From: an uncultured Rikenellaceae bacterium
Lineage (GTDB): Bacteria; Bacteroidota; Bacteroidia; Bacteroidales; VadinHA17
Length of the DNA: 64,000 nucleotides
Assembly: GCA_964389685.1 (NCBI GenBank)
Contig: CAYMFM010000001.1
Location: 143,579-207,578, forward strand
Direction: 5' to 3'
Numbering within the stretch: position 1 is the first letter of the stretch; each line of letters opens with the position of its first letter. The position numbers and the translations under genes were made by a program. Shown one piece after another: positions 8,346-56,528 of this stretch. Below the pieces are notes generated by a model that was not told the DNA's origin, did not search any database, and saw only the letters and a list, made by a program, of their open reading frames with translations.

Positions 8346-8416
8346 AGGTCGGTAGCGGATTCGAACCGCTGTCCCCGGTTTTGCAGACCGGTGCCTAACC
8401 ACTCGGCCAACCGACC
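8346..8416 (-). tRNA. trnC: tRNA-Cys (GCA)
   Basis: Reverse complement GGTCGGT TGGCCGAGTGGTTAGGC ACCGG TCTGCAAA ACCGG GGAC AGCGG TTCGAAT CCGCT ACCGACC T: cloverleaf, GCA anticodon, U discriminator, CCA not encoded. Confidence 0.97.
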
Positions 8417-17716: not shown

Positions 17717-18349
17717 TTAAAGATCATGAGTGAGTTTAACTGCTGTACGAACGAGTTTGGTAATTTCGTCATATTGGTCCTGCTCAACAAGTTCCTTCTT
17801 TACCATCCAGCTTCCTCCACAGGCAAAAATGAATGGATTCGAAAGGTACTGTCTAAGGTTGGTGTTGTTTATCCCACCGGTGGCCATGAACCGGACATTC
17901 CTGTAAGGCGCGGCAATGGCGTTGATAAATGGGAGACCCCCTGAAGCTTCTGCCGGGAAAAATTTGACATGATCGATTCCCCGCTCAAGAGCCTGCTCAA
18001 TCTGTGTGGGGGAATTCAGTCCCGGAATAATGGGTATGTCCCGCTCCAGGCAATGATCCACAACGCGTGGATTAAAACCGGGGGTAACCATAAATTTTGC
18101 TCCATTCGCATAAGCCTCATCAGCCTGGTCCGGCGTAAGAATTGTTCCCGCTCCCAATAACAAATCAGGAAATTCCCCGGAAACAAGGTTGATTGCTTCA
18201 ACGGCAAGACCTGTACGGAACGTGATCTCTGCAACCGGTAGTCCACCCTTGAGCAGTGCCTGAATTACAGGAATGACATCCTCCACCTGATGAATGGTGA
18301 TGATCGGGATGATTTTTATCTGTTTGATTTTTTCTAATGGACTAACCAT
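17717..18349 (-). CDS. eda: KDPG/KHG aldolase
   Basis: EITFRT, GAGT, KFFPAE (Schiff-base Lys), ATGGI. Confidence 0.95.
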   Translation of the reverse strand: MVSPLEKIKQIKIIPIITIHQVEDVIPVIQALLKGGLPVAEITFRTGLAVEAINLVSGEFPDLLLGAGTILTPDQADEAYANGAKFMVTPGFNPRVVDHCLERDIPIIPGLNSPTQIEQALERGIDHVKFFPAEASGGLPFINAIAAPYRNVRFMATGGINNTNLRQYLSNPFIFACGGSWMVKKELVEQDQYDEITKLVRTAVKLTHDL

Positions 18350-18548
18350 GAGTTCGGAATAACTAATGACAACCTGAAAACCGGTGGAAAATTCTGTGAG
18401 TAAACATTACCCGGTATATTGAATAACACATTTCAGTCAAGCAATAAATTTAGTAGATTTATTGAAACTTTCGCAAAGGAAATTTCAAAGTGCAGAATTT
18501 CAATATCTTATTGTTCCAGTACATGGGACTCAGGTGGCGAAGTTGTGG

Positions 18549-18640
18549 GAAGGATGAAGGATATGAAGGATGAAGGATGAAGGATGAAGGATGATGGATG
18601 AAGGATATGAAGGATGAAGGATATGAGATTAAGGATGAAG
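18549..18640 (+). repeat. Tandem heptamer array (GAAGGAT)n, about 11 units, with GAAGGATAT and GATGGAT variants
   Basis: Read directly from the sequence. Confidence 0.95.
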
Positions 18641-18762
18641 TAATTAGGTAATAAAAAAAATGAATTATAAAACATAAAATACTACATTAAATAATTTAAA
18701 ATACCTTGCATTATCAAACACTTAAACACATTAGTCACCACTTATCATAACTATTTTAAATA

Positions 18763-19110
18763 ATGAAAGATTTAAAGGATCGTACTAAAAAATTTGCATT
18801 GGATTGCTTCAGGCTGGTTGAAAAATTCCCGAAAACATTTATGGGAAAACATTGTGCTTCGCAGTTGTTTAAGTCCTCATCCTCTGTTGCAGCGAATTAC
18901 AGGGCATCACAGCTAAGTCAGACAAAAGCATTATTTATATCAAAGCTTAGCATAGTGACTGAAGAGGCAGATGAGTCAGAGTTCTGGCTTGAATTTTCAG
19001 AAGAAATAGGACTTACTAAAGGGGATGAGGTGAACAGACTTAAAGCAGAAGCTCATGAACTAACTTCTATATTTGTCCAGGCCAGAAAAACAGCCCAAGG
19101 CAAGAAGTAA
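18763..19110 (+). CDS. Four-helix-bundle protein (23S rRNA IVS-protein/Avd-like family)
   Basis: 115 aa; LKDRTKKFA, QLFKSSSSVAANYRA, FISKLSIVTEEADESEFWLE, EAHELTSIF. Confidence 0.9.
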   Translation: MKDLKDRTKKFALDCFRLVEKFPKTFMGKHCASQLFKSSSSVAANYRASQLSQTKALFISKLSIVTEEADESEFWLEFSEEIGLTKGDEVNRLKAEAHELTSIFVQARKTAQGKK

Positions 19111-19118
19111 GTTCTTTT

Positions 19119-19211
19119 TATCCTTTGCCGTAGGCACGCCTATAGCGCATCCTTCATCCATCCTGCCTGCCGGCAGGCATGGCATCCTTTATCCTTATAC
19201 AATCATCCTTA
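19119..19211 (-). repeat. Inverted counterpart array (ATCCTTY)n, interrupted by two palindromic inserts
   Basis: ATCCTTT, ATCCTTC, ATCCATC, ATCCTTT, ATCCTTA and ATCCTTA units; inserts near 19125-19147 and at 19162-19181. Confidence 0.85.
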
Positions 19212-19217
19212 GCTTTT

Positions 19218-20390
19218 ATGTCAAGCTCCACAACACTCCCTCTCTCCTGGTTCCGTGACCACTTCACGCAGGAGATCCTGCCATACTGGTTGAAGTCAGC
19301 TGTTGACCCGAATGGTTTTTACTATCCCAACCTGAGCCGGGACTGGAGCCGGACCGGTGAATCCGTTGGTACGCTGGTCAGCCAGTCCCGTTTGCTCTAT
19401 GTTTTTTCCAATGGGTACCGGGTGACACGGGATCCTGAAATAATAAAAACCATCAGATCGGGTGGATCTTTTTTAATCGATTGTTTCTATGATGAGGAAG
19501 AAGGCGGTTTTGTCTGGGCTTGTGACGAAAATGGTTCGAAAAAAGATTTTACAAAAGACGCATATGGTCATGCATTTACCGTTCTTGGACTGGTGAATGC
19601 TTTCAGAGCAATTAAAGAAGAGATCTTTCTGGAGAAAGCACTGGAAATTTTTGACCTGCTTGATACACGTTTTGCCGATGAACAGGGTGGAATCATCTGG
19701 AAAATGAGCCGGGATTGGAAGGATCTGGATACGAACCGTTCTCAGAATCCCATCATGCATACCTTCGAGGCATTGCTGGCATTACTGTCCATCGTAAATC
19801 AGGAAGACCAGCGGACAAGGATACAGAATAAATTATCGGATCTGAAGGATTTTCTCTTTTCACGTGTTCCATCTGGTGACCGGATCATCTTTCCGGAATT
19901 GTATAACAGATCGTGGGAACCGATACACTCCGGGAACGGTGGCTACATTTCAGTGGGTCACCTTTTTGAGTGGGCATTCCTGCTGTCAAAAGGAGTGAAG
20001 AAAGGCCTGCCCGATACCAATCTTATCCTGGCCGGTAAATTATTGGAAACTTGTCTCTCATTGGGTTATCAAAAAGAAAAGGGCTATATTAAAACCTGGA
20101 TTGATGAGACGGGGAAGGTGATCCGGGATGAGATATCCTGGTGGGAACAATCGGAAGGGTTACGGACCCTGCTGCATTTCATCATACAGTTCGACCGGAC
20201 GGATCTGAAGAACTTTTTTGATGCCATTTTTCATTTTGTTCAGGATCATTTTCTCGATCCGGTATATGGTGGATGGTTCACCAGTTTAGATCCCCTTGGT
20301 TTGCCGCTGGACACGAACAAGGGCTCGACATGGAAGCTCGATTATCATCAGACAGCACTCTGTATGGAAGCCATTAACTATTTGACCTAA
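19218..20390 (+). CDS. AGE-family (N-acylglucosamine/cellobiose 2-epimerase-like) protein
   Basis: QSRLLYVFS, DAYGHAF, NPIMHTFEA, GHLFEWA, WWEQSEG, YHQ; likely start MSSSTTLP at 19218; no signal peptide. Confidence 0.88.
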   Translation: MSSSTTLPLSWFRDHFTQEILPYWLKSAVDPNGFYYPNLSRDWSRTGESVGTLVSQSRLLYVFSNGYRVTRDPEIIKTIRSGGSFLIDCFYDEEEGGFVWACDENGSKKDFTKDAYGHAFTVLGLVNAFRAIKEEIFLEKALEIFDLLDTRFADEQGGIIWKMSRDWKDLDTNRSQNPIMHTFEALLALLSIVNQEDQRTRIQNKLSDLKDFLFSRVPSGDRIIFPELYNRSWEPIHSGNGGYISVGHLFEWAFLLSKGVKKGLPDTNLILAGKLLETCLSLGYQKEKGYIKTWIDETGKVIRDEISWWEQSEGLRTLLHFIIQFDRTDLKNFFDAIFHFVQDHFLDPVYGGWFTSLDPLGLPLDTNKGSTWKLDYHQTALCMEAINYLT

Positions 20391-39240: not shown

Positions 39241-39369
39241 ATAACGTCCATCGTTTGTCGATAACGGAAACAAAACGACCGACGTTTAACGACCAACGAC
39301 CCGGGTTTCGTAACCAAATACCCCTGCCTGCCGGCAGGCAGGGAATAACGAATCAAAAACCATCATATC

Positions 39370-41682
39370 ATGAAAAAATTTACATTCATTTCCTTGTTCA
39401 TGCTCTTTTTCACTACAGCATCCTTTTCCCAGTCCCCCGACCCCATCCCCATGGACCAATACCTGGAGTTTGCCAGGAAATCGGCTGACTGGACGTGGGA
39501 AAATATGGATTCATTAATGGCGGCCTGGCGAGAAACACTCGATCCGTTGAGTGTTTTTGGATACCGTCCCCCCGGACGGATCCTGGAGATGGCAACCATC
39601 TATGCAACGTTGTATGAAAAGGAAGAAAAGGAGGAATATGCCGAAAGGGCTAAAAAGATCTTGCTGATCTATGATGATTTCAAAAAGGAATACCCGGAAG
39701 AAGCGGTCCAGAAGCGCCCGGATTATGGGAACGGAGTACCGGCTCTTCCCGATTTCTTTACCACCATGCGGTATGCACGACCTTATGAAATCCTGAAAAG
39801 ACTCGGATACCTGAATAAAAAAGAGCAGGAAAAGATTGATGAAGTGATCGCACACAGCATGGATTACCTCCTTCAAACACAGGAATGGGGGCCCATGAAC
39901 CGGACTGCCCTTCGGGCAGAAGCGCTGGCCTGGTCAATCCGTGCAGTACCAAACCATCAAAAAACACCAACCTGGAAGATGACTGAACAGGCTCTGGGTT
40001 TTGATAACTGGGGGAATTGGGAGATTGAAGATGCCACCATCTATCATGGTGTATGGCTCTATGCCCTGCTCGGTTATGCCGATGCCAAAAATAGGGTGGA
40101 GGAGCTTTTTAAAACCCCGGAGATGTATTATTATGCCCACTATTTCCTTCAGCTGATGTCTCCTGACGGGATGATACCCGACTTCGGTGATGCAACCTTG
40201 CATTCAAACTGGAACCGGTACCTGGTCTACTTTGAAGCAGCAGCAAACATCTATCGAAATCCGGAATTGAAATGGGCCGCTGCCGTAATCGCAAGGAAGT
40301 TCATCGATTTTGACCGGATAGAGAATACAGGATTAGCCTATATGTTACTCGATTGTTACCGTTATGGCACGGATGATGTCAAACCCAGAGTACCGGAAAA
40401 CTTAAGTAGCGAAGTGATGGAAGATGTGCAGGGCAAGAAGATCGTTTTCCGGAATGGATGGACACCGGAATCTACCTATATGCTGTTAAACTATAGGGAT
40501 GAGGGAGATGGAGGATTGCTGTTCAGAGATTACCTGCGCGATGTCATACCGGTAGAAGAGGAAAAAATGACCCATGGACATGCCGATGAAAACAGCATCG
40601 TCCTGCTGATGAAGAACGGATCGGTGTTGCTGCATGACGGAGGTTACCGGGATTTTATGCCGAGCGGACCCTACGGAGCCTATCGCCAGGACTACTTCCA
40701 TAACCGGTTGTGTGTGCGGCAGGAAAAAATATTTATGGGACAGAAAGAGGGTGAATGGAGATACAGCCCAACCGATCATCCGGAAATACCCGGACAACCG
40801 GTACTCGATTTTCTTCATAACGCCGGATCATACCGGATCATCAGAACACAGAAAATCGATTTTCTTACTTTCCCCGATTTTGACTACAGCCGAACCCGGT
40901 TGATCGATGAAAAACTGGGCTATGAATGGGACAGGGTCATTACCTATATTAAGGATCCTGAAATGGTTGTGGTGTTTGACATCGTGAAAGCCCGGGTTGA
41001 GGAGTTCTTTACAGCAGCAAACCTCTGGCATACCCGGGAGATAATAAAACAGGGAAATCACTGGTACGATACCCGGTATGATTCCATCGGGAACCTGAAA
41101 CTCAATGCAAATACCAACCTGCTGATCCACTTTCCAAAATCACATTTCCGGATCGAACAAACGGAAATGGCAAAACGGTATTACCAGGCTGAATGGGTGA
41201 TATCGGAAACAACAGGACAACATTTTGAATTGGGACAAACCATTGGGTTTGTGACCGTTTTGATACCCCATCCACACACAGAACCGCCTGAAAACCTGAT
41301 TTCTCAAATCCGGTATATCGGATCCGAATCCACTGGAAAGGGAATGTCGGTTGAGATCCGGAAAGGAGACCGGGTCATTCACGTCGGTGTGAAGAATGAC
41401 CTTCGAATGGATATGTTCCGGGATTATCGCAGACCGAAATATACCTATGAATCGGGCAAAATTAGCTACGGACCGTTTGAAACCAACGGAGATTTTTTCT
41501 ATACCGAGCGAAAGGGCGACATCCTCAATTTTACCGTGGTGAACCTGACAAAAGCGTTTTACCAGGATCAGGTACTGTATGAACAGCAATCCGGCTATTT
41601 CGGACTGGCTTTTGATGGCAGTGCAGATGTTTCAGGATTAGGCAAGGCAAGGTATTGGAGAAACAAAATGAAGGTTGAATGA
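39370..41682 (+). CDS. Secreted heparinase II/III-like (polysaccharide-lyase-fold) protein
   Basis: Signal peptide; PDFGD and HGHADENSIVL...LLHDGGY...HN resemble heparinase II/III motifs. Confidence 0.55.
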   Translation: MKKFTFISLFMLFFTTASFSQSPDPIPMDQYLEFARKSADWTWENMDSLMAAWRETLDPLSVFGYRPPGRILEMATIYATLYEKEEKEEYAERAKKILLIYDDFKKEYPEEAVQKRPDYGNGVPALPDFFTTMRYARPYEILKRLGYLNKKEQEKIDEVIAHSMDYLLQTQEWGPMNRTALRAEALAWSIRAVPNHQKTPTWKMTEQALGFDNWGNWEIEDATIYHGVWLYALLGYADAKNRVEELFKTPEMYYYAHYFLQLMSPDGMIPDFGDATLHSNWNRYLVYFEAAANIYRNPELKWAAAVIARKFIDFDRIENTGLAYMLLDCYRYGTDDVKPRVPENLSSEVMEDVQGKKIVFRNGWTPESTYMLLNYRDEGDGGLLFRDYLRDVIPVEEEKMTHGHADENSIVLLMKNGSVLLHDGGYRDFMPSGPYGAYRQDYFHNRLCVRQEKIFMGQKEGEWRYSPTDHPEIPGQPVLDFLHNAGSYRIIRTQKIDFLTFPDFDYSRTRLIDEKLGYEWDRVITYIKDPEMVVVFDIVKARVEEFFTAANLWHTREIIKQGNHWYDTRYDSIGNLKLNANTNLLIHFPKSHFRIEQTEMAKRYYQAEWVISETTGQHFELGQTIGFVTVLIPHPHTEPPENLISQIRYIGSESTGKGMSVEIRKGDRVIHVGVKNDLRMDMFRDYRRPKYTYESGKISYGPFETNGDFFYTERKGDILNFTVVNLTKAFYQDQVLYEQQSGYFGLAFDGSADVSGLGKARYWRNKMKVE

Positions 41683-41684
41683 TT

Positions 41685-41865
41685 CGCCATAGGCGTGCCT
41701 GCGGCAAAGGATGCCTTGCCTGCCGGCAGGCATGATGGATGAAGGAGTTGATTGGGAGACGTTGTGACTTTGAGACTGTGAGAGGAAGAGTGATGAGTAG
41801 TGAGATCCGCCTTCGTTACCTCCTTCGTTAGAACTACGGAGGTCAAGAAAACTACGGCGGACAAG
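41685..41865. repeat. Mosaic of heptamer-array modules and nested palindromic elements
   Basis: Reverse-complement copies of the modules at 19121-19190, and a 30-bp element nested in a 30-bp element at 41806-41865. Confidence 0.85.
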
Positions 41866-42344
41866 GATGAGTTGTGAGTAGAAATAGTTGCTGGGTCCTC
41901 GGTCCTGGGTACTGGGAAAAGAAATGATTAGTGAGATAGGAGTTACGAGATACACCTGCCTGGTCGGCATACAGAGGTTAAAAGTTACAGGGAATTAGAA
42001 GGGAGGACAAGGGAGTATATGGTTAGAATAAATAAATTAGCCCCAGCGGGGCGATGTGTCTTTAGCCCAGGGTTACGCCGATACAACGGTCCAACTGCCT
42101 GGTAATTCTTCGGGAAAGCCTTCCCTGGACCGAAAAGCACCAGGCATTGAAACGAAGAGAGGGGGAGCCTTAGAGACTAAGAGAATGAGGATGGCTGAAC
42201 GGGTCCGCAAAAATGACTACACAAAACAACCCCGCTCCGTAGGTGCTGAACCACTTGCACAATATATTTTGAGATAGATAAAATAAAATCCTATTTTTGA
42301 TTTTTTAAAAAATCAAGTCATATAGCACCTAACTGCAATACATT

Positions 42345-52982: not shown

Positions 52983-53210
52983 GCCAGAAAATCAATATCG
53001 AATACTGATTAATGAATAATGAATGATGAAGTTGAGGAATTTTTTTTAATTAATTCAAATGGAAAACGCTTCATGAACCGGGATGCAGGGGCCTTTAATT
53101 AGGATAAAATCCCCGTTCCGTCCACCAGTTGGCGGACTGGAAGAGGGAAACGGGGTGGTAGAAGTTTATGGATTCGCTAAATACATTATACGATCAAAAT
53201 AAATCCTCTC

Positions 53211-56443: not shown

Positions 56444-56528
56444 GAGATCAGGCAAAGGCTGAGGCTAAGGCTAAGGTTTTGGATTGATATCTATATGTAT
56501 TTAGAAATTAAATGTAAAAGGAACTTCT

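Follow-up and report, generated by a model that had tools for sequence, protein, structure and literature searches.

A four-helix-bundle gene enclosed by inverted heptamer arrays: a candidate intervening-sequence-like cassette outside rRNA

In a 64,000-nt stretch of DNA (hereafter the window) from an uncultured Bacteroidales bacterium of salt-marsh and marine sediments, classified within the Rikenellaceae, a gene of the four-helix-bundle family PF05635, the 23S rRNA intervening sequence (IVS) protein family, is enclosed by inverted tandem arrays of the heptamers GAAGGAT and ATCCTTC. The locus exemplifies a widespread variant of the architecture known from rRNA IVSs, one that to our knowledge is unpublished. 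We read it, tentatively and with somewhat less than an even chance of being right, as an IVS-like hairpin cassette that lies in a transcribed leader and would be processed by RNase III, by analogy with the rRNA elements. The four-helix-bundle gene would then occupy the loop of a long hairpin with the inverted arrays as its arms, and this hairpin would be resident in the 5′ leader of an epimerase-transporter operon, downstream of a control region shared with a divergent aldolase gene (Table 1).

The two arms are well defined. The left array consists of nine exact GAAGGAT units, one GATGGAT (at 18593) and, for the remainder, TAAGGAT or ATGAAGGAT variants. The right arm holds five ATCCTT units and one ATCCATC (at 19156), in agreement with a first-pass annotation of this DNA, which had reported inverted heptamer arrays upstream and downstream of the gene and the GATGGAT/ATCCATC variant on both sides. 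The 14-mer GAAGGATGAAGGAT (allowing one mismatch) matches the window eight times, every time at the cassette locus, where 0.04 matches would be expected, and of the 45 occurrences of ATCCTT in the window five fall within the 91 nt of the right arm (about 0.06 expected there). The final unit of this arm stops at 19211, 6 nt short of the epimerase ATG at 19218, as the same annotation had noted; gene calls of the orthologues on related contigs begin at the equivalent ATG. A longer epimerase open reading frame (ORF) of 403 aa, starting within the right arm at ATG 19179, finds no support in the relatives. The annotation had also suggested that the arms could pair, and they are indeed complementary: in the predicted RNA fold of 18530-19230 (-188.7 kcal/mol, z -4.55) 50 base pairs join arm to arm, the right arm pairing with 18565-18619 in the minimum-free-energy structure, and arm-to-arm pairing is likewise predicted at three orthologous loci on the related contigs L001, L007 and L008 (36, 41 and 30 bp, respectively). 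An Rfam scan of 18300-19300 with E up to 1 gave zero matches to known RNA families. The AT-rich spacer that follows the left arm may house a promoter of the four-helix-bundle gene's own.

Table 1. Features of the cassette and its surroundings (positions in the window; L numbers denote contigs carrying related loci)
Feature	Position	Strand	Remarks
Left arm	18549-18640	+	12.6 GAAGGAT units, variants GATGGAT/TAAGGAT; Tandem Repeats Finder, period 7
AT-rich spacer, left arm to start codon	18641-18762	+	18% GC; conserved in L001, divergent in L007, L008, L089
Four-helix-bundle gene (PF05635/TIGR02436, 23S rRNA IVS protein)	18763-19110	+	115 aa; Pfam 50 bits
Right arm	19120-19211	+	ATCCTT at 19120, 19149, 19184, 19191, 19205; ATCCATC at 19156; left-arm reverse complement
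Insert B	19127-19148	+	GCCGTAGGCACGCCTATAGCGC; at unit boundary in right arm; absent from right arms of L001, L007, L008, L009
Insert A, palindromic	19163-19183	+	core TGCCTGCCGGCAGGCA; at unit boundary in right arm; exact core copies at 39325-39340 and 41717-41732
Segment replaced in L096	18581-19247	+	left-array units 5 onward, gene, right arm, first 30 nt of epimerase ORF
Conserved leader block, left junction of cassette	18525-18549	+	GGGACTCAGGTGGCGAAGTTGTGGG; precedes left array in all filled loci
Palindrome in divergent control region	18442-18464	.	CAATAAATTTAGTAGATTTATTG; inverted repeat; conserved in every relative including L093, L094
KDPG/KHG aldolase gene, divergent upstream neighbour	17717-18349	-	PF01081, E 8.6e-70; conserved as neighbour at every orthologous locus
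AGE-family (GlcNAc 2-epimerase-like) gene, first in carbohydrate gene string	19218-20390	+	PF07221, E 4.2e-42

The enclosed gene encodes a protein that matches PF05635 over residues 7-103 of 115, well above the gathering cut-off of 33.8 bits, and the same family is present in all 120 homologues listed. The AlphaFold2 monomer model is an up-down bundle (helices 4-19, 26-50, 55-81 and 88-112; predicted local distance difference test score 95.5) with TM-scores of 0.85-0.90 to 2RLD, 0.85 to 2GSC and 0.74-0.79 to 4DWL, a structure of Avd, the accessory protein of diversity-generating retroelements (DGRs); a phmmer comparison with 2RLD gives 4.9e-10. The first-pass annotation had taken the gene for a member of the IVS family structurally related to Avd, which the Pfam match and the Avd-like predicted fold bear out. 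The gene has a GC content of 39%, against 46% for the window, and tblastn finds one copy within the 64 kb. Across the orthologous lineages its ratio of nonsynonymous to synonymous substitution (dN/dS) is 0.05-0.12, and the protein is 84-95% identical, compared with 64-98% for the aldolase and 58-88% for the epimerase. The protein is under strong purifying selection and appears to be functional. Furthermore, the synonymous divergence of the gene (0.20-0.63) runs in step with that of the neighbouring genes, so that the gene has co-diverged with its site. By analogy with its structural relative Avd, the protein is likely to bind nucleic acid.

Enclosure by complementary arms recurs throughout the family. 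We fetched 80 loci of relatives, with 45-93% protein identity and from at least ten phyla, and compared the 200-nt upstream flank of each gene with the reverse-complemented 200-nt flank beyond its stop, using 504 pseudo-genes from the same loci as controls. Flanks complementary above the 99th percentile of the controls are found at 51 of 84 loci (61%), versus about 1% of the controls, and at 46 of 78 loci when the six orthologues of the window are removed; the concern, raised along with the first-pass annotation, that other family members might lack inverted arrays is not borne out. A simpler hexamer test (score ≥3) singles out 19 of 82 loci and 0 of 415 controls. Among periods from 5 to 12, the flanking arrays have period 7 only. 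Their units vary from locus to locus (GATTGAA, TGTTGAT, GCGGATT, TTTTGAT, GCGATTT, GGATTGA and others), are complementary between the arms throughout and in most cases conserve a GAT/TGA core. TGA is present in 46 of the 51 upstream arms, and all three reading frames are closed in 27 of the 51, against 9.0 ± 2.4 in mononucleotide shuffles. A "three-frame stop" design was considered and discarded, as by our own estimate roughly one in two random circular heptamers of that composition has a stop, and random tandem heptamers would close all three frames with a similar frequency; the excess of TGA remains after three-frame closure is discounted. On crude ORF calls, the gene is co-directional with both of its neighbours at about 57 of 75 loci. 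Cultured carriers of armed cassettes include Jejuia pallidilutea DSM 21165 (L062), Confluentibacter sediminis DSL-48 (L056) and Sunxiuqinia elliptica CGMCC 1.9156 (L054).

Some relatives lie next to stable RNA genes. In L019 (2989-3357 and 3403-3783), a Mariniphaga metagenome-assembled genome (MAG), a cassette armed with the same AAAGGAT unit, whose protein belongs to the sister clade of the window's protein, precedes the gene for RNase P RNA by 45 nt. In L022 (2465-3506), a tmRNA gene and a tRNA-Arg gene bracket an armed cassette on the same strand. These neighbouring genes, like those for rRNA, encode stable RNAs whose precursors are processed by RNases.

At the orthologous sites, filled loci share the layout aldolase, four-helix-bundle gene, epimerase, with a RAAGGAT array upstream of the gene and ATCCWTY units downstream. 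Their proteins are identical to that of the window at 99% (L095), 95% (L001-L006), 93% (L009, a MAG labelled Rikenellaceae), 91% (L089) and 89% (L007 and L008) of positions, and the left array has about 5 units in L007 and L008 but about 23 in L001, a copy-number change of the slippage type. At this site, for which the first-pass annotation had proposed a presence-and-absence comparison, the cassette is retained among lineages whose flanking proteins share only about 60% identity; in L091 and L092 (epimerase 80% identical) both arms are retained and the gene is reduced to its last ~90 nt, in L093 (epimerase 62%) a 138-nt spacer contains only ATCCTTTATCCTTA ahead of the start, with two right-arm units left, and in the outgroup L094 (epimerase 52%) there are zero units and a small hairpin at the cassette position. 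Comparison of the filled junctions (...gttgtggg/aaggat... and ...atcctta/gcttttatg) with the empty L094 site reveals no target-site duplication. The cassette is old at its site and has been vertically inherited for a long time. The earlier suggestion that it is mobile does not hold up well: the synonymous divergence tracks that of the neighbours, neither a target-site duplication nor a nearby transposase was found, and the turnover observed consists only of decay and replacement.

Replacement is exemplified by contig L096, whose two flanks match the window at 99.3% and 98.6% identity and which carries 325 nt of non-coding DNA (1359-1683) in place of the window's 667 nt. Heptamer arms of GCTGGTT/AACCAGC delimit this gene-less element, inside which lie a TGTTAAA-type array and a GC-rich hairpin; the left array of L091/L092 has an insert with 86% identity to the left part of the element. 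The L096 joint is also present in metagenome run X4, at a depth of 18.5 versus 6.3 for the window allele. The epimerase N-terminus MSSSTTLPLSWF is common to the window, L095, L089 and L091, so that the window allele is ancestral and L096 derived, and L096 represents turnover through replacement at the arrays rather than precise excision. Even alleles that are otherwise close diverge over the first 8-12 epimerase codons (VPNHSIIPLSWF in L001 at 3392, MTYKSDLDLPLPWF in L096 at 1648), and the right junction (window 19179-19247) is therefore a rearrangement hot spot extending into the coding region.

The heptamer unit of the window also occurs without the gene. A scan of metagenome contigs for (GAAGGAT)x3 yielded 80 loci, comprising 60 single arrays and 19 convergent pairs, 15 of these pairs being tight gene-less hairpins. 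Perfect or near-perfect examples with the form (GAAGGAT)4, a loop of 8-25 nt and (ATCCTTC)4 are found in L116, L123, L134, L152, L157, L165, L097 and L161, on contigs from varied samples. In the salt-marsh runs X1-X4, the summed contig depth is 100-700x on the array (18534-18611) versus 5-18x on the flanking genes; this excess, together with assemblies that break inside the array, implies that many other salt-marsh contigs carry the GAAGGAT unit. In L104 (724-1215), a G-rich arm, a broken four-helix-bundle gene, another G-rich arm, a short loop and a C-rich arm follow one another along the gene strand, as though the 5′ arm of a pre-existing hairpin had been divided by the gene.

The surroundings of the cassette suggest a location in a transcribed leader. 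Its neighbours encode DUF6807, DUF1295, aldolase, epimerase, SSF transporter and DUF5060 proteins, and no reverse transcriptase domain or transposase/recombinase was found among these neighbouring genes. Co-directional with the gene, a string of more than 20 kb downstream comprises the epimerase, SSF transporter, DUF5060, an aminotransferase, a sugar-isomerase-like TIM barrel, an OYE oxidoreductase, a GH38 mannosidase and a GFO/IDH oxidoreductase, in keeping with the large sugar operon that the cassette had been said to head. Rfam detects no rRNA in the window, the sole match being a tRNA at 8346-8416, and the cassette lies between the aldolase and epimerase genes. The palindrome between the divergent genes includes TAGATTTA, which approximates the Bacteroidota -7 motif TAnnTTTG, has relaxed -7 matches at 18445 and 18454, and is probably a promoter/operator. 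The leader block is found also at the empty outgroup site L094, as gtgactgagagggcgaagctttgg. Because palindrome and leader block lie upstream and persist in relatives that lack the cassette, we tentatively place the cassette within the transcribed 5′ leader of the epimerase-transporter operon.

Both arms can be interrupted by small GC-rich palindromes. Insert B has a related copy on the minus strand at 41684-41705, and in L089 (about 2425-2473) the 22-mer of insert A is found in the left array in reversed orientation; at 41684-41740 inserts A and B again lie among heptamer-like units. These inserts look like dispersed mini-repeats, similar to repetitive extragenic palindromic (REP) or miniature inverted-repeat transposable (MITE) elements, that land in the heptamer arrays of either arm. 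Such likeness is confined to the 21-22 nt right-arm inserts and does not extend to the cassette, and no RAYT-type transposase was seen in the window. Small GC-rich palindromes invade either arm, and the cassette occasionally decays or is replaced. The second site is a 660-nt intergenic stretch (41683-42344) after the stop of a 770-aa ORF, with a half-array of GAAGGTT, GAATGAT, AAAGGAT, GATGGAT and GAAGGAG carrying both mini-repeats, and it continues with other short repeats, including gggtcctcggtcctgggtactggg, which resembles the insert in L091 and L096. An inverted partner arm for the half-array (41670-41745) was searched for, and none was found. Other short tandem arrays in the window are GAATAAT x4.4 and AGGCTA x4.5 (53000-53030, 56450-56476).

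The closest known counterparts are the ORF-bearing IVSs in 23S rRNA of Coxiella burnetii (helix 45) and Leptospira, whose ORFs belong to the same S23p/PF05635 family (Warrier et al., 2016, PMC4990558). In Coxiella, the stem of the IVS is 28 bp long, tandem GACAGAT heptamers precede the S23p ORF, and RNase III cuts have been mapped in the stem (PMC4990558). In both systems complementary ends enclose the ORF and form a long stem (predicted here), copy-variable tandem heptamers occupy the 5′ arm just before the ORF, and the element lies within a transcribed region, as we infer for the window. The window cassette differs in residing in the 5′ leader of a protein-coding operon rather than in an rRNA helix, and in that both arms of this type are long heptamer arrays, of up to ~23 units. 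Furthermore, the Coxiella ORF is decaying and apparently untranslated, in contrast to the strong purifying selection on the cassette protein, and excision by RNase III was shown for Coxiella (PMC4990558), whereas here it is proposed by analogy.

Paired heptamer arrays are themselves known as simple sequence repeats (SSRs), including GGGAATC in Xanthomonas, with "convergent" pairs (Rehm et al., 2015, PMC4692102), and paired tandem heptanucleotides in Geobacter metallireducens (Aklujkar et al., 2009, PMC2700814), and a trans-acting post-transcriptional regulator was proposed for TAACTGA repeats (MacGregor, 2015, PMC4679880). The arms described here resemble these SSRs in their period of 7, intergenic position, convergence on opposite strands with the G-rich array first, strain-variable copy number, mostly transcribed state (proposed for the arms here) and placement at gene boundaries. 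The SSR pairs in those papers, however, enclose no gene, and no gene family is tied to them (PMC4692102, PMC2700814, PMC4679880), whereas the pair in the window, like those of most relatives, encloses a conserved PF05635 gene. Avd-like proteins match PF05635 (PMC10053308), and Avd (4DWL, 8UB7) has the same four-helix-bundle fold, with the TM-scores given above, but sequence identity to Avd is only ~14%, and a reverse transcriptase and a template/variable repeat pair do not lie near the gene; a DGR was rejected, as no reverse transcriptase is encoded among the neighbouring genes. PF05635 proteins are still called uncharacterised in the literature, and full-text searches turned up no paper linking four-helix-bundle genes to inverted heptamer arrays outside rRNA.

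How, then, is the association of gene and arms to be explained? According to the IVS-like reading, the arms would pair in the primary transcript and RNase III would cut the long stem, as it does in 23S rRNA IVSs that carry members of this gene family; cleavage would release the four-helix-bundle mRNA from that of the operon and would make the insert tolerable at a transcribed junction. Several observations weigh against it. The G-rich arm comes first at all 51 of the 51 armed loci, and gene-less pairs are also G-rich first (19 versus 1), a polarity that a plain stem does not explain; since a G-rich...C-rich pair is identical when read from either strand, the polarity belongs to the hairpin and not to the direction of the gene. 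The arms are unequal, with ~12 versus 6 units in the window and ~23 versus 5 in L001, and the right arm of the window is broken by the two GC-rich inserts of ~21-22 nt (19127-19148 and 19163-19183). The wobble signature of pairing in a sense RNA was not found among arm mismatches, which are mostly transversions (G:T 11 versus A:C 20), although this spectrum speaks neither for nor against RNA pairing. Finally, gene-less GAAGGAT hairpins are common, and only 2 of the 80 GAAGGAT arrays carry a four-helix-bundle ORF; the two ORFs appear broken and belong to a distant GC-rich clade. The abundance of gene-less (GAAGGAT)n hairpins implies that the arms are independent of the gene, and the association is strong but one-sided: most genes of the subfamily are armed, and GAAGGAT hairpins are widely gene-less. 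We keep the IVS-like reading at the tentative level stated at the outset because its key step rests on analogy, and because polarity, unequal arms and gene-less hairpins are left unexplained by a plain stem.

Two other explanations compete with this reading. Gene and repeats could form a cognate system, in which an oligomer of the protein binds the heptamer units, as RNA or DNA, the gene lying inside an array pair for autoregulation and the protein acting in trans on the many gene-less heptamer arrays and hairpins of the genome. We consider this doubtful. In its favour, the protein has the fold of Avd, which acts within a ribonucleoprotein (8UB7, 4DWL), and 2RLD has five chains, a pentameric assembly as in Avd; the protein is under strong purifying selection in spite of a "selfish-looking" position; most units share the GAT/TGA core; gene-less GAAGGAT arrays abound in the same metagenomes, as the depth excess indicates; and a trans-acting regulator has been proposed for TAACTGA repeats (MacGregor, 2015, PMC4679880). 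Moreover, at loci in different sites, unit distance correlates with protein distance (Spearman 0.28; reached by 0 of 2000 permutations), a correlation that is confounded by host composition and phylogeny. A strict unit-to-protein specificity is weakened by GAAGGAT arms that also flank genes of the distant GC-rich clade (L104, L176), so that the match between unit and protein is not tight. Alternatively, the gene could be a small selfish insert at the DNA level that lodges in or beside generic, slippage-prone heptamer hairpins, the arms being its target rather than a part of it. Such an insert would spread through the recombination of the host or through an unknown enzyme, and would later be lost. 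The 15 tight gene-less hairpins among the 80 sampled GAAGGAT arrays, several of them perfect, would represent such targets, and the order of elements in L104, the different gene-less heptamer hairpin at the cassette site of L096 between 99% identical flanks, the arms that outlast gene decay in L091 and the close protein relatives across phyla (such as a Scalindua copy nested among Desulfobacterales copies) all fit this idea. We nonetheless judge it unlikely, given that the gene co-diverged with its neighbours, that the ancestral allele is the one in the window and that the site shows no insertion event; that filled and empty (L094) sites differ by no target-site duplication; that no transposase or recombinase is nearby; that carriage of relatives on phages and plasmids is rare (1 weak phage match and 16 plasmid records, all <47% identity); and that the dN/dS argues for a host-useful protein and not for a decaying passenger.

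The arrays might also be ordinary simple-sequence repeats that flank the gene by chance, with no functional link to it, and perhaps serve the leader for contingency or spacing. Heptamer repeats are abundant in other genomes (PMC4692102, PMC4679880) and the length of the arrays is variable, but the hexamer, period and flank-complementarity tests (61% of relatives versus 1% of controls) already contradict this explanation, as do the fixed polarity and the persistence of the arrays at the site across lineages with flanking proteins only ~60% identical, and we regard it as very improbable. The IVS-like hairpin cassette in a transcribed leader thus remains our preferred reading. A bolder generalization, which we also hold to be unlikely, is that PF05635 proteins are the trans-acting partners of domain-wide heptamer-array hairpins, each gene lying inside one of them, and that the rRNA IVSs, the copies beside stable-RNA genes (RNase P RNA, tmRNA, tRNA) and the leader copies would be parts of one RNA-level system of punctuation or processing.

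The locus links, outside rRNA, the very large IVS protein family and the bacterial heptamer repeats. It also provides a tractable case, with a protein under selection, a hairpin in an operon leader and a set of natural alleles (full cassette, arms with a broken gene, replacement hairpin and empty site). If the arms are processed like those of an IVS, operon transcripts in many phyla would carry a self-contained "cut-out" gene module, and if the protein binds the repeats, this would be the first function for both the PF05635 family and the heptamer repeats.

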